60,482 bases of DNA from an uncultured Candidatus Peribacteria bacterium (GCA_964448615.1 CAYUWH010000003.1:1-60482), one strand, 5' to 3'. Numbered from the stretch's first letter, positions 4,431-19,661 are shown. The notes: generated by a model from the letters alone, not told the origin. A program made the numbers and translations.

Positions 4431-5075
4431 ATGTTGCAAAGCCCAGCTCGACAGCCCCAATTCGTAGCTGATTGGTTTTCAGTCCATATTCCCTCTTGGG
4501 AACGGCATTTTGCTGTTTTTGCCGGAAAGCCAAATATCCATGCACTGGAGATAGGGAGCTGGGAAGGACGCAGTGCTTGCTGGCTTTTGCAGAATATTCT
4601 TACAGATCCCAGTTCGCGTATTACTTGTGTGGATGCGTTCCCGACGCAGAATGAATATCTGGATGAAATTTCAAAACGTTTCTGTCATCTGCCCGCCGAT
4701 TTTTGTGTTGAAGAATGTTTTGATGCCAACATTGAGGCGGTGGGCGGTGCAAAGAAAACAAGCAAGCGCAAAGGGGAATCATGTCGAGTTTTGCGGACGC
4801 TACCCTTCGATTCGTTTGATTTGATTTACATTGATGGCTCTCACATGGCGTCGAATGTTCTTACCGATGCCGTCCTTTCCTGGGACTTGCTGCATGTACA
4901 TGGTCTACTGGTATTCGATGATTACAATTGGTCCATTGATCGTAATCCCATTCATGCTCCTCGTGCGGCGATCGATGCTTTTCTCAGTGTGTTTGCGGAA
5001 CAGTATGCAGTGCTTGAGCATGGAGCGCAGGTCATTCTCCGCAAGTTGCCGAACCCATCACGGTATCTTCTCTAA
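4431..5075 (+). CDS. class I SAM-dependent methyltransferase (Methyltransf_24-like)
   Basis: Motifs seen: DWFSVHIPSW, the glycine-rich motif I HALEIGSWEGRS, and LIYIDGSH. The first ATG at 4431 was chosen; the track ORF opens at a TTG at 4422. Confidence 0.75.
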   Translation: MLQSPARQPQFVADWFSVHIPSWERHFAVFAGKPNIHALEIGSWEGRSACWLLQNILTDPSSRITCVDAFPTQNEYLDEISKRFCHLPADFCVEECFDANIEAVGGAKKTSKRKGESCRVLRTLPFDSFDLIYIDGSHMASNVLTDAVLSWDLLHVHGLLVFDDYNWSIDRNPIHAPRAAIDAFLSVFAEQYAVLEHGAQVILRKLPNPSRYLL

Positions 5076-5192
5076 AAACAGTGCGGAGCATGTCAACATC
5101 GTTTGACAAACTTGCTCGAACGGGCGTGGCATTCTTGTGAGGAAAAAACGTGAAGAGTATCCTGAGAACCTCTTCCCTTCCTTCCGTTTCGT

Positions 5193-5450
5193 ATGTTTTC
5201 AAAATCCAAAAACGGTCCGTGTCCCACCTGCAAAGTCACGGGTCTTGTTATGATGGTTGTGGGGTATCTCGTTCTTCTCTTGTCGCTGGTCGGTGTCGTC
5301 ATGGCGCATATCGGCACGGAGGATGTGCCTGTCGTCTTCGGCACAATGAGCGGATCCCTCTCACTCTTGGTGTTTGTGGCATCCCTGTTCTTCGTAAAGA
5401 AGATGGGGAGCTGCTGCCCCTGCCAGTGTGAGCTTCCGAAGAAAAAGTAA
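5193..5450 (+). CDS. small hypothetical membrane protein with Cys-rich C-terminus
   Basis: 85 aa. Two hydrophobic helices (LVMMVVGYLVLLLSLVGVVM, LSLLVFVASLFFV) and a CCPCQC tail. No family recognised. Confidence 0.4.
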   Translation: MFSKSKNGPCPTCKVTGLVMMVVGYLVLLLSLVGVVMAHIGTEDVPVVFGTMSGSLSLLVFVASLFFVKKMGSCCPCQCELPKKK

Positions 5451-5529
5451 GCGAATCACGGTTTTAGAAGAAGGGCCGTTTGACATTGAGCAGATGGCCC
5501 TTTGTTGTGTACACTGCTGCCCCAACCAA

Positions 5530-5620
<91 letters not shown>

Positions 5621-5644
5621 GAACCAGACCGGCAATCAAAACAA

Positions 5645-5670
5645 GAGTAATTCAGGAATTGCTCTTTTTT
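5645..5670 (+). terminator. intrinsic terminator after tRNA-Ser
   Basis: Stem GAGTAATT (5645-5652) pairs with AATTGCTC (5657-5664), loop CAGG, followed by T6 (5665-5670). Confidence 0.7.
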
Positions 5671-5746
5671 CATATAACAAGTGCCGGTCGGTTCATGGCG
5701 CGCCCTGTACCCGATCTGCCAAAGGCAGAGAGTGGTACAGGGCCAT

Positions 5747-5775
5747 TTGACATACCCACACCCTTCATCTTGAAT
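5747..5775 (+). promoter_or_regulatory. sigma70-like promoter of ncRNA unit 1
   Basis: TTGACA (5747-5752), 17-nt spacer, TTGAAT (5770-5775). The unit's first G (5782) lies 7 nt downstream. Confidence 0.7.
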
Positions 5776-5781
5776 CGCCCC

Positions 5782-6082
5782 GATCCAATTGCTTAGTTCT
5801 TTCACGAGAACTCACTCTGCGCTCTTGTAGTGCAGGGTTGACCTCCGATAAATACCATCCGGTGTCCGGATGGAGGAGGTATGGACGGTCGTGAGATCGT
5901 TCAGTCTGCCTGGCTCTTTGCACGGCTGCCTTGGTAGCCAGGGCCCGTCGCGTTGCTCCGTGCCGCAGGCCTAACCAGGCAGCCCTGCAACTTCTCGTTG
6001 CAAAGTTTTTTCCAAAACTTCGCAACGACAAGATTCCACGAATTGGATCATTCCGGGGAGATGCTTCTCCCCGGATTTTTTT
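5782..6082 (+). ncRNA. retron-like structured ncRNA, unit 1
   Basis: 5' GATCCAATT (5782-5790) is complementary to 3' AATTGGATC (6041-6049). Conserved scaffold to about 5908, unit-specific arm 5909-6035, CCACG at 6036-6040. Terminator CCGGGGAG/CTCCCCGG plus a T-run at 6053-6082. Confidence 0.75.
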
Positions 6083-6121
6083 AGTTCAACTAGTTGTTGG
6101 CGCATTCTCACGTACTGGTAT

Positions 6122-6150
6122 TTGACATATTCATGCAATCCGCATTCAAT
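6122..6150 (+). promoter_or_regulatory. sigma70-like promoter of ncRNA unit 2
   Basis: TTGACA (6122-6127), 17-nt spacer, TTCAAT (6145-6150). The unit starts at 6157. Confidence 0.7.
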
Positions 6151-6156
6151 ATCGCC

Positions 6157-6450
6157 GATCCAATTGCTTAGTTCTTTCACGAGAACTCACCCTGCACTCT
6201 TGTAGTGCAGGGCTGACCTTCGCCAAAGACCATCCGGCGTCCGGATGGAGGAGGTATGGACGGTCGTGAGACCGTTCAGTCTTGTTGGCATTCGGAAGGC
6301 ATGCGTTATGTCGTTCCGGCCCTTCGCTTCGCTCAGAGCCGCAACTTAATAACGCAGCCATGCCGACCAAATGCATAAAGAAAACTCGTTTTCTTTATGC
6401 ATTCGGATCCACGAATTGGATCACCCCGGGAGGGCTCGCTCTCCCGGATT
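6157..6450 (+). ncRNA. retron-like structured ncRNA, unit 2
   Basis: 5' GATCCAATT (6157-6165) pairs with AATTGGATC (6414-6422). Scaffold to about 6283, specific arm 6284-6408, CCACG at 6409-6413. GC hairpin CCGGGAG/CTCCCGG at 6426-6447 with only a weak T-run (ATTGT). Confidence 0.75.
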
Positions 6451-6496
6451 GTACGTGCCCAACCACTTGTTGTTGGCAGATTCCATTCTTCGATAT

Positions 6497-6525
6497 TTGA
6501 CATGTCATGATAATCCATCTTCAAT
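6497..6525 (+). promoter_or_regulatory. sigma70-like promoter of ncRNA unit 3
   Basis: TTGACA (6497-6502), 17-nt spacer, TTCAAT (6520-6525). The unit starts at 6532. Confidence 0.7.
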
Positions 6526-6531
6526 ACTCTA

Positions 6532-6818
6532 GATCCAATTGCTTAGTTCTTTCACGAGAACTCACCCTGTACCCATCGTGGTACGGGGTTGACCTTCGCC
6601 AAAGATCATCCGGCGTCCGGATGGAGGAGGTATGGATGACCGCGAGGTTATCCGGTCGGACTGGCTAGCAGGGCTTGTCGCACTTGAGGGTGCCCTCGCT
6701 TCGCTCGAGGCATACCCTCTTCGTACGACGACGCCCTGACAGGCACTGACAAAGCGTTGTCAGTGCCTGTGTACCACGAATTGGATCGCCCCGGGGGAGT
6801 TCTCTCTCCCGGATTTTT
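6532..6818 (+). ncRNA. retron-like structured ncRNA, unit 3
   Basis: 5' GATCCAATT (6532-6540) pairs with AATTGGATC (6779-6787). Scaffold to about 6659, specific arm 6660-6773, CCACG at 6774-6778. Terminator hairpin 6791-6812 plus T5 at 6814-6818, which overlaps the next -35. Confidence 0.75.
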
Positions 6819-6845
6819 GACAAGTACAAAAAATCATCTTTACTG
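6817..6845 (+). promoter_or_regulatory. sigma70-like promoter of ncRNA unit 4
   Basis: TTGACA (6817-6822), 17-nt spacer, TTACTG (6840-6845; a weaker -10). The unit starts at 6851. Confidence 0.55.
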
Positions 6846-6850
6846 CTCTA

Positions 6851-7143
6851 GATCCAATTGCTTAGTTCTTTCACGAGAACTCACCCTGTACCCATCGTGG
6901 TACGGGGTTGACCTTCGCCAAAGATCATCCGGCGTCCGGATGGAGGAGGTATGGATGACCGCGAGGTCTCCAGTCTGCTGTGCTTTGACCTTCGAGCGAC
7001 TACTTTGGGTTCAGCCATTCGCTTCGCTTATGGCTGCCCCGGCGTATCGCCCGAAGCTCACGGCGTCACAATCAATGCTACGCATTCATTGTGACCCAGA
7101 CCCACGAATTGGATCACCCCGGGAGGGCTCGCTCTCCCGGATT
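6851..7143 (+). ncRNA. retron-like structured ncRNA, unit 4
   Basis: 5' GATCCAATT (6851-6859) pairs with AATTGGATC (7107-7115). The first 117 nt are identical to unit 3. Specific arm 6978-7101, CCACG at 7102-7106. The 3' hairpin (7119-7140) is identical to that of unit 2. Confidence 0.75.
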
Positions 7144-7189
7144 GTACGTGCCCAACCACTTGTTGTTGGCAGATTCCATTCTTCGATAT

Positions 7190-7218
7190 TTGACATGTCA
7201 TGATAATCCATCTTCAAT
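7190..7218 (+). promoter_or_regulatory. sigma70-like promoter of ncRNA unit 5
   Basis: TTGACA (7190-7195), 17-nt spacer, TTCAAT (7213-7218). Identical to the unit 3 promoter. The unit starts at 7225. Confidence 0.7.
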
Positions 7219-7224
7219 ACTCTA

Positions 7225-7520
7225 GATCCAATTGCTTAGTTCCTTGGAACTCACTCCGCACACGCAAGTGCTGCGGGGCTGACCTCCGCTTCACAATCAT
7301 CCGGTGTCCGGATGGAGGAGGTATGGACAGTCGTGAGGCTGTCCGGTCTGGGTGGTTCTCGATCACTCAGGTTAATCTCGTTTCGGCCTGTCGCATTCGC
7401 TCCAAGCCGCAACTGAGCTAACATGAGTGACCGACCCTTTTTCCCTGAAATGGGATTTCAGCGAAAAAGGGATCCACGAATTGGATCTCCCCGGGGAGAG
7501 GCATCTCTCCGGATTTTTTT
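7225..7520 (+). ncRNA. retron-like structured ncRNA, unit 5
   Basis: 5' GATCCAATT (7225-7233) pairs with AATTGGATC (7479-7487). This is the most divergent scaffold, with compensatory stem changes. Specific arm 7351-7473, CCACG at 7474-7478. Terminator GGAGAG/CTCTCC plus T7 ends at 7520. Confidence 0.75.
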
Positions 7521-7552
7521 CGACTTTTCCAACGTTCTTCCGGCGACGCATT

Positions 7553-9358
7553 ATGAGTCTTAACAGTATGCCCAGCGAGGAAACCCTTGAGTATTGCTCG
7601 CAATTATTGCAACGGCCGTTTACGGCGCCGTGGGAAGCGAGCGGTGTCCTGCTCAGTATTCTCGAGCAGTTGCGCACACGGCCAGGGGCTCTGTATCGCA
7701 CGCAATATATTGAAAAAGGCAACGGCAAAATGCGCCGAATCGATGAGCCCAACAAAATTTTGAAATTCGTGCAGAAGCAAATTTCGTTGGTGCTGAATCA
7801 TGCATGGGTCGCGCCGGGCGTATGCGGCTTCGTGCTGAACAACAGCGCGCAACAAGGATTGCGCGGCATGATCGACACGATGTACGTGGGAACGGAAGAG
7901 CATCCCGCTCGCGGGCCCATCAAGGCGGTGTACCAAGAAGATATTGAAAACCAGTTCGGCTCTATCACGCGCGATCAAGTGGAAGAGGCGCTGCGCGAGC
8001 ATTTCTTCACGCGCATTTTGCACGATTGGGAGAAGGGGCCGAAACTCCCCAACTTGCAAGTCGGCAGAATCGCCGAAGTGATTGCCGAAGTGTGTTGCTA
8101 CGAAGGACATTTGCCGCAGGGTTCTCCCGCGAGCCCCGTCCTCTCCAACATCGTCTGCACGCGTTTCGATTTCGCGTTGAGACGTTTGCTCGGCAAGCAG
8201 GGAGTGTACGGACGCTATGCTGACGACATGGTGGTGCTCGCGTGCGACAAGCTCGATACGAAATTCCGCGGGAAATTCCGCAACATTCTCAATACGTGCG
8301 GATTCAACGTGAATCGTGAAAAAGGAGAATATGAGGAACACCGGCGAAGGAAGACTGAGGAAGAAAGTTCCGGCGATCCGCGCCAACGTTTTCGCATTTG
8401 GGGAATGGATCTCGTGGTTGATGACGATGCGCAGACAGCATGGTTCCGCCTGCCGAGGAACATGGAGCGCCAATGGGTGGAAGATATCTCCGCAATGCTG
8501 GAGGGTGCCGGCGATTTGCCTCGTGACTCAAAAGAATTTATGAGTGACACGCGCGTATTGGAGGTGCTCGGCAGGCTTGCTTATGCGTTCCAGGTAACAC
8601 GTTGGGGGCATCCCGATCACATCAAGGGGCGCGAATTTCCCGGCCGTTCCGACGAGAGACCGGAGATTACCGGCGCGCATGAATTCCTCCCGAAGGATTT
8701 GGCACGAATCTGGCGGGCGTTCCGCGCCGAATTCGGAGGCAGGTTGCCGCAACGTCACCGACGTTGGTTCCACGATACGGCGCCGCTCTATAGCGCCAAC
8801 AGCACGCGGGTTCCCGTTACCTCCGGGGAGTTTGAAGAACGATTGCACGAATTCGGCGTTGAGAGAGGCTTTGATGAAGCGACATTGATCGCGGAGTTGA
8901 ATCACTATCAACAGCATTTTCAAAGCGATTATCCGCTCGTGGATGCCGATGGCGTCCAGTACCGCGCTGCCGGACAGAGCAATGATTACCCCGATGAAGC
9001 ATTGGCGGAAGCGTCTGAACTCTTTGTCCAGCAGAGTCCGAGCGTGAGCGATACGGAGCGTCTTGAATTGCTGCGCAGAACGCTCGCGTGCTTCAGCGGA
9101 TTCGTTCGCTGTTTATTTGCCGGGCAATTGCAAGGATTCAGCATCAGCGAGCAGCACGACTCATTACTGCCGGTGAACGGCCAGCGCCCGTGGCAGCGCT
9201 TGCTGCAAGAGTGTCGTCGCGCGGGCATCTCCACGCCTGAGCTTGTGCGGTTGTTTGATGCAAGCACGTCTCGCACGCAGTACCGCATTCGTCCGAAAAC
9301 CCTCCCCAAAAAAGTGCATCGTGAACATCTGCACTTGTACGGTTTCGATAACGATTGA
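7553..9358 (+). CDS. reverse transcriptase (retron/UG-like, not assignable to a known class by eye) with long C-terminal extension
   Basis: RT motifs in order: KGNGKMRRIDEP (motif 1), YQEDIENQFGSI (motif A), LPQGSPASPVLSN (motif B, ~8111-8150), RYADDMVVL (motif C, ~8212-8235), GFNVNREKGE (motif D). About 280 aa follow with no recognisable domain. Start set at the first ATG after the unit-5 terminator; the track ORF opens at 7427 inside the ncRNA. Confidence 0.9.
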   Translation: MSLNSMPSEETLEYCSQLLQRPFTAPWEASGVLLSILEQLRTRPGALYRTQYIEKGNGKMRRIDEPNKILKFVQKQISLVLNHAWVAPGVCGFVLNNSAQQGLRGMIDTMYVGTEEHPARGPIKAVYQEDIENQFGSITRDQVEEALREHFFTRILHDWEKGPKLPNLQVGRIAEVIAEVCCYEGHLPQGSPASPVLSNIVCTRFDFALRRLLGKQGVYGRYADDMVVLACDKLDTKFRGKFRNILNTCGFNVNREKGEYEEHRRRKTEEESSGDPRQRFRIWGMDLVVDDDAQTAWFRLPRNMERQWVEDISAMLEGAGDLPRDSKEFMSDTRVLEVLGRLAYAFQVTRWGHPDHIKGREFPGRSDERPEITGAHEFLPKDLARIWRAFRAEFGGRLPQRHRRWFHDTAPLYSANSTRVPVTSGEFEERLHEFGVERGFDEATLIAELNHYQQHFQSDYPLVDADGVQYRAAGQSNDYPDEALAEASELFVQQSPSVSDTERLELLRRTLACFSGFVRCLFAGQLQGFSISEQHDSLLPVNGQRPWQRLLQECRRAGISTPELVRLFDASTSRTQYRIRPKTLPKKVHREHLHLYGFDND

Positions 9359-9385
9359 TCTTCTTCATTTTTTTCTCTTTCTCCC

Positions 9386-12300
9386 ATGTCCAAGAAAGCC
9401 TCTGTCGCCGCCGCTCCGACCGTCGTCACCGACGAGTTGTACGCATTGCTCGAGCGGGATCCCACTGCTGCCATCTTGCAGACGAGTCTTGCGGAAGATG
9501 CCGCGGCGCATCTCGACGATACGTCGGAAAAGCGCATGGCCGTCGAGCCGGAAATCGTGGGAATTCTTCTCGCAGGATTCCGTGCATCCGTGGAGCAATA
9601 CATATCCAGCGAACTCCTCGAGGCGCACCCAGATTTGCAGGATATGAAGGAGAGCATTCTGCAGGGGAGGCGAAAAGTGCGCGGCGACATCATGCGATTA
9701 CTGAGAGAGCACGGCGGGCATTTGCGCAGCGCTTCGCGGGAACAGAGTCGCTTCAATCATGAAGTGACGTACGAACCGGGTAAGGATGTGGAGCCGACAC
9801 TCGCGAACTTCCGGCATTTGCGCGGGTTGCACAAAGACATTGAAGCACGCCGCGATGAGATGGCTGCCACGCTCGGCGGAGCGCAGCGGTCGTTGCGCGC
9901 GAATATTCCGGGCATGGCGGCCTTCTCGCGCTTGATCGTGCAAACTGAAGGTGGTTCCGAGGAGCATCGTCTCAAGACATTGATGCGCCAAATGTGGGGT
10001 GACGAGCGCGTGCAGGCGGAGTGGGTGCGTGCGCAACACGTGGCCTATGCGCAGGCGGCCGAGCGCGGAGACAGAATCATCGAAGGTCCTTCGACGGTGG
10101 TATTGCTCAACCGCATTCATCGCGAAATCAACGTGAACAAAATGCGCGGCTCAACAGGTGTGGCGCTCGTTGGTCCTCCGGGCTGGGGAAAGACCGAAAT
10201 CTTGAAGCACTATTTCGCGGAAGTCGGCATCCACTTGGTCACGGCGGACATGTCGCGCATCAGCAATGCCGCCACGCTCATGGCGCGCCCGGCGTTGCAG
10301 GATGAATCGTTCCGGAGTCTTGATGATGTCATCGATGCGATTGAGACGATGACGCATCGCGACTTCCTCCGTTTCTATACGCAACATCCGGAGTTGTGTC
10401 AGCAGGCAGGCATTGATTGGGACCAGATCAAAAATCCGCGCGCAACGCAGCGTCTTGCCAATGCCCGGCAAGCACTGGCGGCGCCGCTTAAAGATGCGCG
10501 CGGGAACCGCATCGCCGAAGCATTGCAGACCCACGTTCGTCAGCGCGGCGTCGTCTTCGGCCTCCTTGCCAAAACCTTGCTGAGACCCAACAGCGCGTTC
10601 GGCTTCGAAGAATTCACGTACCTCGACATTGCCAACGCGCCGTTCGTCAATGGTCTCATGACGACCATTCCCGCAACGGATGAAGAAGCGGGCTTGCCTC
10701 CGGATGAACGCACGACTCCCGGCGATCTGAAGGGGTGGTTCCAGGAACCGATCAGCGGCATCTGGTTCCGCGTACCCAAGACCTTCTCGATCAACGGCAC
10801 GGCGAACGTGGGAGCGGCGTACCGCAACCAGGGAATTTCCGCGGCGTGGGAGAGCCGCTTCGGCGGAGGATTGATCACGATCCCGTTGCGTGATCAGCGC
10901 AAAAAAGAAACAGCGCCGATCGATGACGGCGTCGAATTCCAGGAAACGCCGGAAGGCAATCAATTCAAGGAGTATTTGGAGACCCTCGTCTGGCCGCGCC
11001 TCTCCGATTCTACGACAGGCCGTTTCGAATTGGATGACGACACCGCGTACCGTCTCGACTTCCTCGTCCGCCGCGTGTTGCCGCATATCATCTCCACGCT
11101 GCGCCGTCGCAATCGCAAAATGCCGAACCTCTCGATTCGCACGCTGCAGGATCTTTGCAATCGTTTGCTTCCTCGATCCCAAGACGAAGACTTGAAGGGC
11201 GTGAATTTGGATACCGCGATTTGGGAATCCATCGTTGAACCGCTGGCTGCCGATATCGATCAATACGGGGAAACAGTCGAAGTGGTGCTGGCATGGTTGA
11301 TGGGCTCCGGCGTGCTGCGCAACGTCGGTACGCGCGTGAAGGGGTTGTTGTCGGGTCCGGTGCATCAGCGTTTGCAAAAAACGATCGATCAGCTTCGTAC
11401 TTCCGGCTCGGGGAATACCGAGCAGGCGGCGGAAACATTCGAGCAATTCCAAGATACGCAGTACACCAGGGCCGAAGGAGTGCATGCGGGTTCTTGCCAT
11501 GCGTGCGGCGTGACGGCATGTCCGGTTCACGGCAAAGACACCGAGGAATATCTCCATCAACTCGCGCAACTGGAGCGCGCAGCGGCGATGGGTATGACGC
11601 CGGAGATCGCACGCGCCATCAGCAAGCGTCAGGCTGAATTGTTACGCGCTCAGGAATGGGGAATGCTGCTCGAAGTGTATTTGGAAACGAACGGTGCAAA
11701 GCAGTTGGAGAAAATTCCTGCGGGGCTGGAAGAATATTTGCAGAGCTTGGTGACGGCATGTACCGAAGATCCTGAACAGGCTCCCGAGCACATTCAAATT
11801 TTGCAGCGAGCTTCCGCCAATGCGTTGCCCGTCAAAGTTGATCAGCAGTGGATGTGCACGATGATGGATTACTGGGGTAAGGTGCTCGCAAATACTGAAT
11901 TCGTAGATGTTCACGAGCGTCTTAAGCAGCTGCAAGATGTACCGGGAGCTTCTGCGGAGCAGGACCGTGTGCGCATTGGAAAAGATATGCAACGTATTGT
12001 GCGCGACCGTATCGCGCCGGCCTTGCGTGTCATGAGGACGTTGCAAGAATGGTCCAAGCAAACGCGTGATCTCAACATGGATGAATGTATGGTGTTGACC
12101 GATATGGTCGATTACCTGCCTGCCCAGTCGTTGATGGTGGCTCGCGAGTTGACGGCGGAGGAAGAGCATAAAGATGTGGTGAAAACCGCGGTGGACCGTT
12201 CAGTGAAAAGCCGCAAGAAAGAGCTGCAAGCGGAATTTAAAGCGATGCGCGACAATCTCGGTGGCGGTGCCAATCAAGAGGCGGCGCAAGGGCGCGTCAT

Positions 12301-12616
12301 TGCCCGTCCGCCTGCCGAAATCGCACAGATGCCCCAACTCGTTCAGCAGTATGGCGCCGTGCAGCGTCTGTTGCGCGAAGCGGGGGCACTCGCGAAATTG
12401 CATGCTATTCCCACGGAAGAGCTCACCGAACTCGTATCACTTGCGTCCGGCTTGCTGCGTGAAGGATTCGGGGGCGAAAAAGAATCCGACGTGTGCATTC
12501 CTTTTGTGCGCTGCATGCGCACGATCGCGGATGTTCGCGGCATGAGCGTCAATGATGTGCTGCAATATTTCTTCGAACCCAAAGTGGTGCCGTATCCTCC
12601 CATTCGTCAATTCTAA
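9386..12616 (+). CDS. large P-loop NTPase, AAA+ (MoxR/AAA_5-like) core with long helical extensions
   Basis: 1076 aa. Walker A GVALVGPPGWGKTEILK (~10160-10200). Candidate Walker B AFGFEEF about 130 aa downstream. The rest is not recognisable. Starts 27 nt after the RT stop. Confidence 0.6.
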   Translation: MSKKASVAAAPTVVTDELYALLERDPTAAILQTSLAEDAAAHLDDTSEKRMAVEPEIVGILLAGFRASVEQYISSELLEAHPDLQDMKESILQGRRKVRGDIMRLLREHGGHLRSASREQSRFNHEVTYEPGKDVEPTLANFRHLRGLHKDIEARRDEMAATLGGAQRSLRANIPGMAAFSRLIVQTEGGSEEHRLKTLMRQMWGDERVQAEWVRAQHVAYAQAAERGDRIIEGPSTVVLLNRIHREINVNKMRGSTGVALVGPPGWGKTEILKHYFAEVGIHLVTADMSRISNAATLMARPALQDESFRSLDDVIDAIETMTHRDFLRFYTQHPELCQQAGIDWDQIKNPRATQRLANARQALAAPLKDARGNRIAEALQTHVRQRGVVFGLLAKTLLRPNSAFGFEEFTYLDIANAPFVNGLMTTIPATDEEAGLPPDERTTPGDLKGWFQEPISGIWFRVPKTFSINGTANVGAAYRNQGISAAWESRFGGGLITIPLRDQRKKETAPIDDGVEFQETPEGNQFKEYLETLVWPRLSDSTTGRFELDDDTAYRLDFLVRRVLPHIISTLRRRNRKMPNLSIRTLQDLCNRLLPRSQDEDLKGVNLDTAIWESIVEPLAADIDQYGETVEVVLAWLMGSGVLRNVGTRVKGLLSGPVHQRLQKTIDQLRTSGSGNTEQAAETFEQFQDTQYTRAEGVHAGSCHACGVTACPVHGKDTEEYLHQLAQLERAAAMGMTPEIARAISKRQAELLRAQEWGMLLEVYLETNGAKQLEKIPAGLEEYLQSLVTACTEDPEQAPEHIQILQRASANALPVKVDQQWMCTMMDYWGKVLANTEFVDVHERLKQLQDVPGASAEQDRVRIGKDMQRIVRDRIAPALRVMRTLQEWSKQTRDLNMDECMVLTDMVDYLPAQSLMVARELTAEEEHKDVVKTAVDRSVKSRKKELQAEFKAMRDNLGGGANQEAAQGRVIARPPAEIAQMPQLVQQYGAVQRLLREAGALAKLHAIPTEELTELVSLASGLLREGFGGEKESDVCIPFVRCMRTIADVRGMSVNDVLQYFFEPKVVPYPPIRQF

Positions 12617-12619
12617 ACG

Positions 12620-14572
12620 ATGTCCGAATCCTCTCCTGAACGGCCGCGCAATCCAACCCGTCTCCCGGAGATTCTCAGTGATCTGCATATCGAATTGTTG
12701 CGCCCGATTTGCGAAGGGGTGGACAGTGCGGAATTGCGCCCGTCCGATCCCAATACGGAGAGCAGCGGCTATGCCACGATCATCTCGCAGCCGGACAAAG
12801 ATGCACCGCAGCGGCTCGTCATCTATTACCATCCCGTGACGGTGCACACGATCGGCGAGGCGCGCGTGTTCGCGATCATGCTGCATGAACTGGGGCATCA
12901 TCATCCTGAAGTTGAGCGGTTCCAGCATTCGTGTTTGCGCTTTGCCAAGGCGGCGGAAGGAGAGCAATTTTTACCTCCGAACCTGGCTGACAAAGCGAAG
13001 CTCGTGCATACGTGTTTCAATATCCTCGCAGACGTATTGCTTGAAACCATTTGCTGCCGCAATCTGCCTGCGGAAAAAATGATGCGCAGCGCGCTTTCCT
13101 ATAATCGTGCGCATCTCTTTTTTGAGCACATGGATCCGGACGGGACGCGTTTGCAGGCATACGAAGAGTCGGATCGTCAGCTGTTTCCGTGGTCGGAAGA
13201 GGAATTTCGCAAGATGGAAGCGTGGTCCCAGCTTATGCAGGCATCGCTCGTCGCGCCATTTTTTCAATGGCCGGACGAGGCGTGGATGGCTCCGTCGCTT
13301 GCCAAGCGCATGCCGGAAGTGCGGCAGCTGTTCAGTGAGCTCCGCAGCCCCGCGACCCGCGGCGAGATGAAAGGACATTTGTTCCTCAAATACGTCGGTA
13401 TCGTCGGAGATTTGATTCGAGAGGAGATGCACAAGCTTTCCGCCGCCGGCGGCGATACGACCCAAAAATCGGGCGAACTCAGCGATCGTGTCGGGGATAC
13501 TTGTGATCGCGCGGATCGCATCACCAAGCCCGGAGAGGCGGAAGGACAGCCTTCAACGGAACAGAAAGAGCCTCCGCCCAGAGATCTGACTGAAGATATC
13601 GGTGCACAGCGCAAACGCATGGATGACTTGATGCAAAGCCAGAATGCGGAAGAGGAAGAATATATCAAACAGAAAGCGGCCGAGCTTGGCGTTAACGTAA
13701 AAACGTATCGTCTCTATCTCGATATTTGTAAAGAGTGGGAGGATGTCATCAAAGAGTTCACCAGGGCGCTCTCGCAATTCGTGTTGCGTGATTTTCAAGT
13801 GGAACCGCGTACGGGATTTTCCGAGGGCTACATGATCACGCCGGGCCGGGAATTTGAAACGTACATGCGTATCCGAATGGGGGAGGAAGACCCCGACACG
13901 ATGGAGGGATACCAGACGTTCCGCAATCCGCGCGTGTTGCAGCTTTACCCGTGCATCGACACGTCCGGAAGCATGAAGCACCGTATCGAAGAAACGTTGG
14001 CGTATTACACCGTTATCGCGAAGTCCTGCTTTAATATTCAACAGGAATTGAAGCACAACGCATCGAACTACAACATTCCTTTCAGTTGGCCGCCCCCCCT
14101 TTCGCTCGAAGTCGTGACGTTCTCCGACACGCCCGAAGTGGTCGTGCCGTTTCAAGAAACGATGGACGAGAAGACGCTTCTCAAAGGCTTCGAGAGCATC
14201 ATTCATGAGACGAGCGTGGGGCAAGGCACCAACGACAGCGGAGCGCTGAAATTCGTGTATAAAGAAATGGAAAAGAACGATGTGAACGCGCTCAAAATTC
14301 TCATGATGCTGACGGACGGCGTGGGGAATCACGACCTTCTGGAGCCGATCATCCGGCAAATCGAAGAGGATCCGGGGATTTATTTCCTTGTGTCCGGAGT
14401 GGGCTACGGGTCGGGTGCGGTGCAGAAAGCGTATCAAGATCGCTTCCGACCCACGCAGGATTTTCATGTGTTTGCCATGGAGCATGAAACGGTGAAAGAG
14501 GCGCTGCTCGAGACTCTCGGGCTCATCAAGCAATGGACTGCGGAATTCTACGCCCGCAATACACCGAGCTGA
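12620..14572 (+). CDS. zincin-like (HExxH) + von Willebrand factor A domain protein
   Basis: 650 aa. N-terminal IMLHELGHHH (HExxH, ~12884-12898). C-terminal vWA with MIDAS-like DTSGSM (~13958-13975) and MMLTDGVGN. Starts 3 nt after the NTPase stop. The layout resembles the metallopeptidase-N + VWA-like proteins that partner MoxR ATPases. Confidence 0.65.
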   Translation: MSESSPERPRNPTRLPEILSDLHIELLRPICEGVDSAELRPSDPNTESSGYATIISQPDKDAPQRLVIYYHPVTVHTIGEARVFAIMLHELGHHHPEVERFQHSCLRFAKAAEGEQFLPPNLADKAKLVHTCFNILADVLLETICCRNLPAEKMMRSALSYNRAHLFFEHMDPDGTRLQAYEESDRQLFPWSEEEFRKMEAWSQLMQASLVAPFFQWPDEAWMAPSLAKRMPEVRQLFSELRSPATRGEMKGHLFLKYVGIVGDLIREEMHKLSAAGGDTTQKSGELSDRVGDTCDRADRITKPGEAEGQPSTEQKEPPPRDLTEDIGAQRKRMDDLMQSQNAEEEEYIKQKAAELGVNVKTYRLYLDICKEWEDVIKEFTRALSQFVLRDFQVEPRTGFSEGYMITPGREFETYMRIRMGEEDPDTMEGYQTFRNPRVLQLYPCIDTSGSMKHRIEETLAYYTVIAKSCFNIQQELKHNASNYNIPFSWPPPLSLEVVTFSDTPEVVVPFQETMDEKTLLKGFESIIHETSVGQGTNDSGALKFVYKEMEKNDVNALKILMMLTDGVGNHDLLEPIIRQIEEDPGIYFLVSGVGYGSGAVQKAYQDRFRPTQDFHVFAMEHETVKEALLETLGLIKQWTAEFYARNTPS

Positions 14573-14594
14573 TTGTCTGCGGTATAGTCGGCTC

Positions 14595-14993
14595 ATGCAG
14601 TTTCCTGTCGAGCTCTCTCCGCCGTTACTTGCGTTGGCGATGCAGCTGAATCTTCGTCCCGAGGATATCGAGGAGCAATTCGTGAAGGGGAGCGGAGCCG
14701 GAGGGCAGAAGGTAAACAAAACCAGCAGCGTCGTGCATCTTCGCCATGTGCCCACAGGCATCGAAGTGCGGATGCAGAAGCATCGCGAACAGAGTCGGAA
14801 CAGGGCTTCTGCCTATAAGCTGCTGATTCTCAAGATTGAGGAACACAAAAAGGGAAAAGAGTCGAAGCTCTCGCAGAAAATTTTTAAGTTACGAAAACAA
14901 AAACAGCGTCGTTCGCGACGGGCGAAAGAAAAAATGCTTCAAGAAAAACATCATCGCACGGAGATCAAAGAGGGGAGAAGATCGTTTCTTTAG
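14595..14993 (+). CDS. RF-1-domain GGQ protein (ArfB/ICT1/C12orf65-like peptidyl-tRNA hydrolase)
   Basis: 132 aa. GSGAGGQKVNKTSSVVHLRHVPTGIEVRMQKHREQSRNRASA is a class-I release factor GGQ domain. It is followed by a lysine/arginine-rich tail. Confidence 0.8.
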   Translation: MQFPVELSPPLLALAMQLNLRPEDIEEQFVKGSGAGGQKVNKTSSVVHLRHVPTGIEVRMQKHREQSRNRASAYKLLILKIEEHKKGKESKLSQKIFKLRKQKQRRSRRAKEKMLQEKHHRTEIKEGRRSFL

Positions 14994-14998
14994 TCGGT

Positions 14999-15436
14999 TC
15001 AGCGTAGATGTGCCGCGAGATCCTGTAATGCTGCCTGCATATTCGGGACCAGTGCTTCGAGATTGCGCAGCTCGTCGTGCGTGTACCAGTGGAAACCGCC
15101 GATCTTGTGCGGTTCCAGATCCGGGACCGGGTCATCGCTGCTTGAGCAGAGGTAGGTGTGTACCGTGAACGTGCCTTCAGGGGTGTGGGTCTGATAGATG
15201 CCGAGAAGGGACCCGATCGCAATGTTCATGCCTAGCTCTTCCTGTGTCTCGCGCTTGGCGGCGTCTTCCGGCGTTTCCCCGGGTTCGAGTTTGCCGCCTG
15301 GCGGCTCAATGCGGAGGCCGTGCTTGATGTTGTGAACGAGAAGGACTTTACGGTCGCGTACGACAAGAACCGCGACCAATTGGCGGCGCGGCTGCTCAAT
15401 CTGTTCAGGTTCAGATGAAGGGATATTGACCATCAA
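14999..15436 (-). CDS. NUDIX hydrolase
   Basis: Nudix box GGKLEPGETPEDAAKRETQEELG (Gx5Ex7REUxEExGU). Confidence 0.85.
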   Translation of the reverse strand: MMVNIPSSEPEQIEQPRRQLVAVLVVRDRKVLLVHNIKHGLRIEPPGGKLEPGETPEDAAKRETQEELGMNIAIGSLLGIYQTHTPEGTFTVHTYLCSSSDDPVPDLEPHKIGGFHWYTHDELRNLEALVPNMQAALQDLAAHLR

Positions 15437-15647: not shown

Positions 15648-15706
15648 GGGACGGCAAGATTAGCTGGTAGCAGGATGGGCGTCAACAGCAACTTGCTGGC
15701 TTTGAG

Positions 15707-15769
15707 TGAGTAGTTTGTAGTGGGTAGTGAGTAGTTTTTTTGACATTTCTACCTACTACAAACTACTCA
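15707..15769. repeat. 21-bp word-built hairpin (GAGTAG/GTAGT words) in divergent promoter region
   Basis: TGAGTAGTTTGTAGTGGGTAG (15707-15727) pairs with CTACCTACTACAAACTACTCA (15749-15769) with one G-U. The 21-nt loop contains T7 and TTGACA (15740-15745). Lies between the divergent rpmB and M50 protease genes. Confidence 0.7.
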
Positions 15770-15815
15770 CTACTCACTTCTCAATGAGGCCCTATATTTA
15801 CGCTATACTTGCGCT

Positions 15816-16481
15816 ATGACATTTTTGAATCCCACCTACATCATTGCGATCCTGATCGCCATTTCCCTCCACGAATGGGCACATGCGATTACGGCACATC
15901 GTTTTGGAGATCCGACGCCGGAACGGGAGGGCAGGCTGACCATCAATCCTATCGCACACCTTGATCTCATCGGTGCGCTGATGTTCTTGTTTGTCGGCTT
16001 CGGATGGGCCAAGCCGGTGCCCGTGAATCCCGGCTATTTCCGCAAACCAAAATTGCAGATGGCTCTTGTGGCGCTTGCGGGCCCGGTGATGAATCTCTTG
16101 CTGGCGTTCATCGCGTTTATCGGATTGGTGTTCCTGACCAATACGCAGTCGCTTTCCATCATGGATCTGCTTTCTCCAATGAGTGATTCCTCCCCCGGCG
16201 TGCGCGTGCTCGCGCAAATTCTCGGCAGCTCGCTCTTTGTGAATCTCGGATTGATGGCGTTCAACTTACTCCCGATTCCGCCGCTCGACGGTTCCAATAT
16301 GCTGCGTCTCTTCATTCCGTATCATCTTGAAGATCAGTATGAAACGCTCATGCGCTACGGCCCGTTCATTCTTCTTGCACTTGTGTTCTTGCCCATCCCG
16401 TTTCTCTCGCAGTGGGTACACACGATTATGGGAGCGGTGTTGTGGGCGTTTGAGATGTTGGTGGCTGCAGTAGGGTTGTGA
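15816..16481 (+). CDS. site-2 protease family (peptidase M50) zinc metalloprotease
   Basis: 221 aa, polytopic. HEWAHAITAHRFGD (HExxH inside a TM helix), NLLPIPPLDGS (the second M50 motif). Confidence 0.85.
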   Translation: MTFLNPTYIIAILIAISLHEWAHAITAHRFGDPTPEREGRLTINPIAHLDLIGALMFLFVGFGWAKPVPVNPGYFRKPKLQMALVALAGPVMNLLLAFIAFIGLVFLTNTQSLSIMDLLSPMSDSSPGVRVLAQILGSSLFVNLGLMAFNLLPIPPLDGSNMLRLFIPYHLEDQYETLMRYGPFILLALVFLPIPFLSQWVHTIMGAVLWAFEMLVAAVGL

Positions 16482-18386: not shown

Positions 18387-19610
18387 TTAAATCTTCAGTT
18401 TTTTCTGCACTCCATTCAACACTTCTCCCAACTTCCGAATCTCCTCCTCCGTCGTATACATCCCAAGCGACACGCGCACCGATGCAGGAATGCCGAGTGT
18501 TTGATGCAGAATCTGTGCACAGTGTTGTCCGGCGCGCACGCAAATATTCTGGGATCCGAGTAGCTCGGCGATATCGTGAGGATGCGCCCCTTTCATGGTG
18601 AAGCTGATGCATCCGCGGCGATCCTCAGGGTCTATGTTTCCAAGGATGGTAATGCCGGGAAGCGAGGCAAGTGTTTCATGAAGAACACGCATCAGTTGTT
18701 GTTCATGTGCGAGGCGATCATGCCACGAGTAGTGCGCGGCCCATTCCAGCGCCGCTGCCAGGCCGATGGCTCCGGAGATCGGTTGCGTACCTGCTTCGAA
18801 GCGCTGTGGGGGATCGGCTGGTGCAAATCCATTGATAGTTACATCGCGGATCATGCCGCCTCCGCCCAAAAACGGCGGCATCGCTTCGAGTAATTGACGT
18901 TTGGCATAGAGCACGCCGATGCCGTCTGGCCCGTAGAGTTTGTGTCCGGAGAATGCGAGAAATTCACAGTCGAGATGCGCCACGTTCATTTCGTCGTGTG
19001 CTGCGAGTTGAGACGCATCAATAAGAACGGCTGCTCCTCGGTCATGCGCCTGCATGATCAAATGTTCCAATGGCTGACGGACGCCGATCACATTGCTCAA
19101 GCCCGTGAGCGCGCAAAGTTTGACGGGATGTTCGTGTAGCAATTGTTGTAGATGCGCTTGGGAAATCGTCCCATCGTGGTCCATGCGGATCCATGCGATG
19201 CGTACGTTTTTTTCCTCCGCAAGTTGCAGCCACGGAATGACGTTGCTGTGGTGTTCGAGTTCTGAGAGCAGGACCACGTCGCCTTCGTGCAGCATGCATC
19301 GCCCCCATGCATGGGCGACGAGATTGATCGCTTCGGTGGCGTTTTTCGTAAAGACAATCTCATCCGTGTGCTTCGCATGCAGAAACCTTGCAACGGTTTT
19401 TCGCGCCGCTTCGAAACGCTCCGTCGCTTTTTCCGCGAGCGGGTGCATGGAGCGGTGCGCTCCTCCGACGGATGTTTCGTAAAATTCCCGCATCGCCTCA
19501 AGAACAGCGTCCGGCTTCTGGCTGGTTGCGGCGCTGTCGAGATACGCCAGTTCCGGCTCGCGCCTGAAGAGGGGAAATTGGCCTCGGATGGAGGAGAGAG
19601 GGGTGGTCAT
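18387..19610 (-). CDS. sufS: cysteine desulfurase SufS (class V aminotransferase)
   Basis: 407 aa. FPLFRREPELAYLDSAATSQKP at the N-terminus, FSGHKLYGPDGIGVLY (PLP lysine), RAGQHCAQ (catalytic Cys loop). Confidence 0.9.
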   Translation of the reverse strand: MTTPLSSIRGQFPLFRREPELAYLDSAATSQKPDAVLEAMREFYETSVGGAHRSMHPLAEKATERFEAARKTVARFLHAKHTDEIVFTKNATEAINLVAHAWGRCMLHEGDVVLLSELEHHSNVIPWLQLAEEKNVRIAWIRMDHDGTISQAHLQQLLHEHPVKLCALTGLSNVIGVRQPLEHLIMQAHDRGAAVLIDASQLAAHDEMNVAHLDCEFLAFSGHKLYGPDGIGVLYAKRQLLEAMPPFLGGGGMIRDVTINGFAPADPPQRFEAGTQPISGAIGLAAALEWAAHYSWHDRLAHEQQLMRVLHETLASLPGITILGNIDPEDRRGCISFTMKGAHPHDIAELLGSQNICVRAGQHCAQILHQTLGIPASVRVSLGMYTTEEEIRKLGEVLNGVQKKLKI

Positions 19611-19661
19611 GCGGAGGAATCAGCTTACCCCAACTACGTGCTGCTGGTACACTATGGCATC

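Follow-up and report, generated by a model that had tools for sequence, protein, structure and literature searches.

Five tandem non-coding RNA (ncRNA) units of retron-like design precede a reverse transcriptase (RT) operon in an uncultured Candidatus Peribacteria bacterium. The locus occupies positions 5747-14572 of a stretch of 60,482 nucleotides (GCA_964448615.1, CAYUWH010000003.1:1-60482), referred to here as the window. The operon encodes a retron-like RT, a predicted MoxR-class AAA+ ATPase and a putative zincin-like protein with a vWA domain, and the three genes are genetically linked to the ncRNA array over about 10 loci. On balance we favor the view that this is an unclassified retron-type system, in which one RT would make several multicopy single-stranded DNAs (msDNAs) that control a co-opted MoxR-vWA-protease module. 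Complementary DNA (cDNA) synthesis and a role in defense are inferred from sequence.

The array covers 5782-7520 on the + strand. Its units begin at 5782, 6157, 6532, 6851 and 7225, as proposed in the initial annotation of the window, and the shared ends that define them (openings GATCCAATTG and GATCCAATTGCT, closing ACGAATTGGATC) are confined to these five units within the 60 kb. The annotated spacing is equally correct: 32 nt separate the end of the array from the RT open reading frame (ORF), 27 nt the RT from the ATPase and 3 nt the ATPase from the vWA protein. The RT motifs, the 1076-aa Walker A protein and the 650-aa protein with HExxH and vWA are all present. The features of the locus are as follows.

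5747-5775, + strand: promoter-like site of unit 1 (TTGACA-N17-TTGAAT), one of four matches in the window, ending 7 nt before the unit
5782-6049, + strand: ncRNA unit 1, with a2 arm GATCCAATT, unpaired G, hairpins P1-P4, two hairpins of its own, ACG and a1 arm AATTGGATC
6052-6082, + strand: terminator of unit 1, GC hairpin and T7, from the terminator scan
6122-6150, + strand: promoter-like site of unit 2 (TTGACA-N17-TTCAAT), from the window pattern scan
6157-6422, + strand: ncRNA unit 2, from shared ends and fold
6424-6447, + strand: GC hairpin after unit 2, lacking a T-run, probably leaky or non-terminating
6497-6525, + strand: promoter-like site of unit 3, from the window pattern scan
6532-6787, + strand: ncRNA unit 3, first 133 nt 98% identical to unit 4
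6791-6818, + strand: terminator of unit 3, GC hairpin and a T-run that overlaps the next -35 hexamer
6817-6844, + strand: variant promoter-like site of unit 4 (TTGACA-N16-TTTACT), read directly, same 7-nt spacing
6851-7115, + strand: ncRNA unit 4, a mosaic with a 5' part like unit 3, a 3' part like unit 2 and its own hairpins
7117-7140, + strand: GC hairpin after unit 4, lacking a T-run, absent from the terminator scan
7190-7218, + strand: promoter-like site of unit 5, from the window pattern scan
7225-7487, + strand: ncRNA unit 5, from shared ends and fold
7491-7520, + strand: terminator of unit 5, GC hairpin and T7, from the terminator scan
7568-9358, + strand: retron-like RT, 596 aa, alternative start at 7553, RT domain at about residues 30-270
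9386-12616, + strand: predicted MoxR-class AAA+ ATPase (ORF2), 1076 aa, core at residues 180-660, orphan N- and C-terminal extensions
12620-14572, + strand: putative zincin-like and vWA protein (ORF3), 650 aa, motif HELGHH...NxLxDxxLE, metal ion-dependent adhesion site (MIDAS) at D447, S449, S451, T537 and D566

In the description by Mestre et al. (2020), the a1/a2 ends of a retron ncRNA hybridize and two G residues oppose each other; the msr forms one to three hairpins and the msd a long, stable stem-loop. The units follow this design closely. Each runs from a 9-bp a2/a1 closing stem and an unpaired G through hairpins P1-P4, one long and one short hairpin and ACG to the a1 arm, and the RNAalifold consensus of the five window units contains 72 pairs, of which 20 show compensatory changes. 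For the closing stem, the ends of 19 units from six loci were aligned without gaps, since MAFFT misaligned P1 and P2 across loci. In this alignment 83% of the cells of the a2/a1 helix are paired, compared with 64% in shuffles, and 54 cells carry a double change, compared with 21; neither value was reached in any of 500 shuffles. Registers shifted by 1-3 nt pair in only 20-52%. The inner six pairs are paired in all 19 units, with 4-9 sequences double-changed per variable pair, and the covarying helix reaches up to 11 bp. The opposing G residues at the end of the stem (TTG|CT and ACG|AA) are invariant in the 19 units. In locus L062 the adjacent TT/AA pairs are replaced by TA/TA on both sides and both G residues are kept. 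The complementary unit ends and the unpaired G reported in the initial annotation correspond to this helix and to the invariant G.

The scaffold hairpins P1-P4 are 85-100% identical among the window units, and the inner hairpin of P3 covaries across loci. The long and short hairpins that follow are unrelated in sequence from unit to unit. The annotated division into a conserved 5' scaffold and a unit-specific arm holds for the scaffold; the variable part consists of two hairpins, not one arm. Folded as cDNA, the variable parts give two hairpins each, with z-scores of -6.4 to -8.9. With three to four scaffold hairpins followed by these stable cDNA hairpins, a covarying a1/a2 stem and opposing G residues, the units deserve the name retron-like ncRNA. 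They depart from the retron msd in having two hairpins rather than one. They also do not form one cassette co-transcribed with the RT, the retron arrangement; each locus has 2-6 units, mostly with their own promoter-like sites. The variable parts in the window have a single element in common, the motif TTCGCTTCGCT of 11-19 nt, which lies at the long hairpin's apex and at a constant offset (6319-6342, 6693-6706, 7014-7037 and 7396-7414). At L037 (7105-8038) an apex motif CCTTCGCGAGCTCGG stands at a fixed offset, and no such motif occurs in L010, L011 or L008. The motif may serve a single sub-clade as a stop signal or for binding a protein. No match to the variable hairpins was found in phage records, in the rest of the window or in the related loci, and spacer-like or target-derived hairpins were rejected on this ground. 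A diversity-generating retroelement (DGR) was rejected as well: neither the window nor the related loci contain another sequence that matches the variable parts.

The promoter-like sites are not expected by chance. The pattern TTGACA-N17-TTNANT has four matches in the window, all heading units (1, 2, 3 and 5), with a chance expectation of 0.10, and four or more matches occurred in 0 of 100 shuffles. The initial annotation gave every unit a promoter of this type; unit 4 has a variant, N16-TTTACT. The distance from the end of the second hexamer to the first G is 7 nt in each unit, so the predicted transcript start is the a2 arm. A GC hairpin with a covarying stem lies at the end of all five units, as annotated, and a T-run with a pass in the terminator scan was found only for units 1, 3 and 5. 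After units 2 and 4 the hairpin is followed by ATTGTACG and not by a T-run (6424-6455 and 7117-7148), and these units may read through into, or be co-transcribed with, units 3 and 5. At L011 a promoter is likewise absent between units 1 and 2 and between units 3 and 4. The 5' 133 nt shared by units 3 and 4 and the 99% identity between the 3' end of unit 2 with its downstream promoter and the counterpart in unit 4 form a mosaic, which indicates recombination or gene conversion inside the array. A perfect 10-bp hairpin (GCCCTGTACC/GGTACAGGGC) is seen at 5702-5743, immediately 5' of the unit 1 promoter; as its stem is similar to hairpin P2 in units 3 and 4, it may be the relic of a lost unit. A search of 5000-15000 against Rfam (E-value up to 1) returned tRNA only and no ncRNA family match.

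The same organization recurs in a small number of other bacteria, ultra-small and uncultured. The RT family is extremely rare, with four relatives, at 31-45% identity, among 5.8 billion clusters, and beyond these the matches are ordinary retron RTs with E-values of about 1e-16. The RT-ATPase-vWA trio is retained in all four. When 1.84 billion cluster representatives were searched exhaustively with an ATPase profile, about 21 (50% identity clusters) matched over the full length, and a word-indexed homologue search with ORF2, as a single sequence or as a 7-sequence profile, returned the same three proteins. Genome and metagenome scans with context look-ups give about 10 distinct trio loci, and all those with named records belong to the candidate phyla radiation (CPR)/Patescibacteria (Peribacteria, Peregrinibacteria, Gracilibacteria and UBA4473). 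Units were scanned for as 5-7 nt followed by TTGC(T) ... CGAA and the reverse complement of those 5-7 nt. The settings were varied (6-7 nt with TTGCT, or 5-7 nt with TTGC), and intergenic sequence was inspected directly as well. Wherever the flank of a trio locus is long enough, units of this design are present.

Window locus: 5 units, upstream of the operon
L010: 6 units, upstream
L061, from the organism of L010: 4 units, upstream
L011: 4 units, upstream
L013: 3 units, downstream of the operon
L037: 3 units, upstream, opposite strand
L008: 2 units, upstream
L062: 2 units, upstream
L004 and L059: at least 1 unit each, upstream

The other trio contigs stop 46-270 nt 5' of the RT, and repeats would cause such breaks. 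Within each locus the scaffold is almost identical and the two hairpins differ. The array is inverted at L037 and downstream at L013, and the RNAs would therefore be separate transcripts acting in trans. Away from the trio, neither the window nor about 0.6 Mb from unrelated loci contained a unit; the loose motif gave only scattered single chance matches. The idea in the initial annotation of one RT serving many templates is supported: every relative that has enough flank pairs the trio with an array of 2-6 units.

Assembly support for the window array comes from an ENA assembly of the same organism (L006), which is base-identical to the window over 5400-9400, though the agreeing assemblies, all made from short metagenome reads, may share reads. 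A Logan assembly (L007) breaks within unit 5, as a true repeat is expected to break assemblies. L010 (8459-9877) and L061 (7185-8129) have RT genes that are 100% identical and carry six and four units. Their difference is a collapse or deletion over a perfect 136-nt repeat, with an N-gap within the L010 array, and is either a true copy-number polymorphism or an assembly collapse.

Judged by the family alignment, a start of the RT at 7568 (MPSEETL, 596 aa) is more likely than one at 7553. It has the motifs KGNGKMRRIDEP, DIENQFGSI, QGSPASPVLSN and YADD, and YADD and the other catalytic motifs are invariant in the family alignment. The family has an insertion of its own, RILHKWEKGP. Its C-terminal domain, about 330 aa long, is conserved and has no relative that could be detected. 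Three kinds of comparison place the RT in the retron lineage. In PADLOC, retron RT models are top for all five family RTs, with a best E-value of 1e-41 and 66-109 bits for the window RT. In NCBIfam the window RT matches retron St85 with 104 bits (cut-off 235), group II with 51 and Drt2 with 45 (cut-off 390). The closest sequence match among solved structures is Ec86 RT (7e-24). Membership in one of the 13 retron types is contradicted both by the effector and by the RT score. Scores on the type models are 3-7 times below that of a true member, no type is favored, and none of the NCBIfam retron cut-offs (235-600 bits) is reached. A true type I-C RT (L064) scores 767 bits on RT-Toprim_I-C, which puts the window RT outside all 13 types. 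PADLOC has RT_UG models, yet the 25 matches listed for the window RT, all of at least 66 bits, include no UG/DRT model, and the 25 families listed for the five family RTs include none either. DRT2/DRT9, defined by a UG2/UG28 RT and a single upstream ncRNA, does not fit either, with the Drt2 score of 45 bits against 390 and a blank Rfam result. By model matches, one of the checks asked for in the initial annotation, the RT is nearest to retrons and inside none of the 13 types.

The two partner proteins are less easily named from sequence. Searches of ORF2 and ORF3 in PADLOC, Pfam, NCBIfam and PDB sequences gave no named family past weak AAA and vWA matches, and for ORF2 the weak AAA match is the only one. 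The ATPase alignment keeps Walker A GPPGWGKT, hhhhNE and TGNIG, together with a zinc knuckle of the form CxxCGVxxCPxHG and the C-terminal sequence PLPPLRxY. No substitution is seen in Walker A, at E409 or N474, or at the conserved Arg residues. The full-length AlphaFold model, from a 3-sequence alignment, has a predicted local distance difference test (pLDDT) score of 40. The model of the core (residues 180-660), from a 61-sequence alignment, has a pLDDT of 89.5 and a predicted TM-score (pTM) of 0.82. Foldseek with the core model finds NorQ first, including NorQ-NorD vWA complexes, with CbbQ alongside (E-value 5e-7, TM-score on target 0.63-0.74), and then McrB, Rea1 and dynein. Remoter relatives of 700-900 aa bear Pfam AAA_5. 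On this model ORF2 is predicted to be a MoxR-class AAA+ ATPase. The vWA domain of ORF3 is recognized by Pfam VWA/VWA_2 (1e-8), and its MIDAS residues DxSxS...T...D are invariant in six orthologues, as expected of the second member of a MoxR-vWA couple. The HExGHH...NxLxDxxLE motif is invariant in the orthologue alignment. The MoxR-like/vWA pair of the initial annotation is thereby upheld, with NorQ-NorD and CbbQ as best structural matches of the core model and with MIDAS and HExxH...E invariant.

Among the established parts of conflict systems are MoxR-vWA couples, which were proposed to be ATP-dependent switches for effector deployment (PMC7159879). At L036 (443-6794, GCA_964434305.1) an RT-less module encodes an AAA_5 MoxR-like ATPase of 722 aa and a zincin-vWA homologue of 701 aa. 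The latter aligns with ORF3 over its full length (hhalign 99.9%, E-value 9e-33) and keeps HExxH. The pair occurs there with no RT, and it thus forms an independent module, acquired by this RT lineage. About 40 clusters of shorter ATPases of the L036 type are seen. The L036 module also has two unknown ORFs, of 358 and 325 aa; these were considered as homologues of the orphan C-terminal domains of the RT or of ORF2 and rejected, no homology being found.

These observations can be arranged in a mechanism. The RT would recognize the common scaffold in trans, prime at the 2'-OH of the G that follows the a2 arm and copy both hairpins of every unit. The cell would then keep a small set of two-hairpin msDNAs of about 120-135 nt. 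The predicted priming G lies at 5791, 6166, 6541, 6860 and 7234 in units 1-5, and the predicted DNAs would be antisense to 5903-6036, 6278-6409, 6654-6774, 6973-7102 and 7345-7474. RT-msDNA particles could bind and restrain, or scaffold, the machine of MoxR hexamer and vWA adaptor. Damage, modification or sequestration of msDNA by an invader could lead to ATP-driven remodeling via the vWA adaptor that frees the metallopeptidase activity, with growth arrest or abortive infection as the outcome. Several msDNAs might widen the range of triggers, or hinder neutralization of the sensor by a phage; this is a guess. The nearest analogy for such a take-over is the co-option of Septu by type I-A retrons (PMC12132198). 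The boldest form of the idea is a natural 'multitron', seemingly restricted to CPR, with one RT, a diversifiable trans ncRNA array subject to gain and loss, and a panel of distinct msDNAs, each a bait or sensor of its own, gating MoxR, vWA and metalloprotease. We rate this form as somewhat less likely than not.

Several points weigh against a retron-type defense system. In classical retrons ncRNA and RT are co-transcribed; here they are not. The most conserved residues of retron regions X and Y are the H of NAXXH and the G of VTG (PMC7736814). NAXXH is not found in region X of the RT family, which has SAxxGLRxM there and no His. In region Y, KVTGLV of Ec86 aligns with K(I/V)WG(V/M) of the family, so that the G is invariant and V and T are lost. 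ORF3 is a putative peptidase by virtue of its invariant HExxH...E motif only; neither Pfam nor the PDB gives a match. What several msDNAs would be good for is speculative. No defense island is present at the loci examined, which have housekeeping neighbors and in which PADLOC finds nothing nearby, and the biology of CPR hosts may give such systems other roles.

The closest precedent for the array is UG27, a class 2 UG/Abi system of gut prophages. Its variable arrays of structurally conserved, sequence-diverse ncRNAs template cDNA hairpins of 50-100 nt, all three proteins are needed and close relatives differ by one or two units (bioRxiv 10.64898/2026.09.22.753630). After that report, ncRNA arrays can no longer be called absent from natural RT systems, and the array idea has a precedent. 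The statement in the initial annotation that RT systems carry a single ncRNA holds only in part since these arrays were reported in September 2026. The likeness is one of design only: an RT with two accessory proteins, a tandem array of structure-conserved and sequence-variable units, hairpins as the templated parts, and a copy number that varies between close relatives, here L010 and L061. A UG27-like mode of action, with free short cDNA hairpins, no 2'-5' branch, an RT that perhaps needs both accessory proteins and an a1/a2 stem that merely presents the template, would also suit the RT without NAXXH, a motif tied to initiation (Mestre et al. 2020). We consider it unlikely. The top PADLOC matches of the RT are all retron types despite the presence of RT_UG models, and the active site is YADD in a retron-like RT and not YSDD as in UG27, a comparison made from the UG27 description and the PADLOC models without direct comparison of UG27 sequences. 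The terminal stem and opposing G residues correspond to retron priming geometry. The units here are 180-270 nt with a1/a2 and opposing G residues, whereas UG27 units are about 150 nt with a pseudoknot and AUCN7UANAG/UUYA; the start motif AUCN7UANAG is absent from 5740-7530, that is, from the array. The accessory proteins differ in kind, having MoxR and vWA folds here and no detectable domains in the sORF and bORF of UG27. The loci here are chromosomal in CPR bacteria, and those of UG27 lie in gut prophages. Finally, cDNA synthesis has been demonstrated for UG27, whereas the present system is known from sequence alone.

A role outside defense in CPR cells, such as MoxR-vWA-aided maturation or remodeling of some complex of the cell that uses a nucleic-acid cofactor made by the RT, seems to us quite unlikely. 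The characterized couples NorQ/NorD and CbbQ/CbbO are maturation or activation chaperones and not immune proteins, and the housekeeping neighbors would agree with such a role. To our knowledge, every characterized retron has a role in defense, which counts against it. So do the very sparse and patchy distribution of the family, with some 21 clusters (50% identity) in a set of 1.84 billion representatives, the fast turnover of array content and the recurrence of MoxR-vWA couples in conflict systems (PMC7159879).

The units could also be regulatory or scaffold RNAs bound by the RT, with cDNA made only upon a trigger, as for type VI retrons and DRT2, or never. The scaffold is much more conserved than the variable part, and type VI retrons are reported to lack abundant constitutive msDNA (10.1101/2025.10.22.683967). 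Against such RNAs, the catalytic residues of the RT are invariant, the variable parts are under selection for hairpin folding in every unit of every locus, and the template-proximal ACG|a1 junction is invariant, which makes this explanation very unlikely. An assembly artefact, or a generic repeat resembling a miniature inverted-repeat transposable element (MITE) that happens to adjoin the RT, is hardly credible. In its favor, the data are short-read metagenome assemblies throughout, the L010 array has an N-gap and L061 is two units shorter. Against it, the array is identical in two assemblies of the window locus, homologous arrays of different sequence adjoin the trio in eight other loci, and apart from single chance matches no unit turned up off the trio, either in the window or in the 0.6 Mb or so from unrelated loci.

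A retron-type system remains the best description, and its likeness to retrons and its differences from them can be stated precisely. The RT is nearest to retron RTs, the ncRNAs share a1/a2 with two opposing G residues, scaffold hairpins and a stable hairpin-DNA template, and accessory genes lie in the RT operon. The accessory pair also occurs stand-alone, and so does the Septu ATPase-nuclease pair, which RT-msDNA has co-opted in the type I-A retrons Ec78 and Ec83. The differences are 2-6 ncRNA genes per RT in place of one, most of them self-promoted and some downstream or on the opposite strand, an msd-like part of two hairpins, and an RT with no NAXXH and a 330-aa orphan C-terminal domain. 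MoxR AAA+ and zincin-vWA effectors occur in none of the 13 types (Mestre et al. 2020), and no vWA, AAA+ or MoxR partner appears in the retron or UG/Abi classifications. Literature naming both 'retron' and 'MoxR' yielded no description of this system. The locus thus lies, as the initial annotation suspected, outside what is covered by PADLOC, NCBIfam and the retron and UG/Abi classification papers. An array with retron chemistry, as predicted here, is without precedent, and so are these partner proteins.

The partner pair resembles the MoxR-vWA couples NorQ/NorD, CbbQ/CbbO and RavA/ViaA and the conflict-system versions of Kaur et al. (2020) in having a MoxR-fold AAA+ protein beside a vWA protein with a complete MIDAS. 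It differs in the ATPase, whose length is about fourfold and which has a zinc knuckle and orphan extensions, and in the vWA protein, which has an N-terminal zincin motif. The MoxR-vWA conflict systems described have a DGR-type RT as partner and never a retron-type RT or an ncRNA. Engineered 'multitrons' use arrayed retron ncRNAs or msds for multiplex editing (PMC10370050). They share with the present design one retron RT serving several arrayed templates with a common scaffold, and they tolerate msr/ncRNA in trans; they are man-made, and the present system would be their natural counterpart.

If the 'multitron' reading is true, the pairing of sensor and effector is one seen in no described RT system, and ncRNA arrays have, together with UG27, arisen independently in two RT lineages. 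Retrons are defined by one RT and one ncRNA, and a natural multi-template RT of retron type would alter this definition. It would offer a ready-made scaffold for multiplexed DNA production in vivo, hitherto only engineered. MoxR AAA+ ATPase and zincin-vWA would be a new effector class for RT-based systems and would tie the large and poorly understood MoxR-vWA world to nucleic-acid sensing. The system would also be among the very few candidate immune or conflict systems known, on present sampling, only from CPR/Patescibacteria. With UG27, it suggests that variable arrays of hairpin cDNA are a recurrent solution, and the question of hairpin recognition becomes testable.

In the window, a tRNA-Ser(GGA) gene lies at 5530-5619, directly 5' of the array. 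A tRNA-targeted island was rejected, as no att-like repeat of the tRNA-Ser 3' end occurs in the window and the relatives lack tRNA adjacency. Downstream of the operon, a 30-nt imperfect inverted repeat around TTGACA (15705-15778) is found 5' of an M50-peptidase ORF (15816-16481) and looks like an operator. The ORF at 19287-22529 encodes 1080 aa with no Pfam or PADLOC match. A phage origin of the family was also rejected, with no family member in the viral collections IMG/VR and INPHARED and with phage matches of the RT that are ordinary type I-C retrons. The best of these matches, among them L064 (2769-4496, MT836041.1, a human gut phage contig), are retron type I-C RT-Toprim genes on unannotated gut phage contigs. 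Weaker relatives of the RT, at 27-29% identity, are seen at L040 and L015 on Gracilibacteria-like contigs. Read with genetic code 11, L040 has hardly any long ORFs, which points to recoding of its genome.

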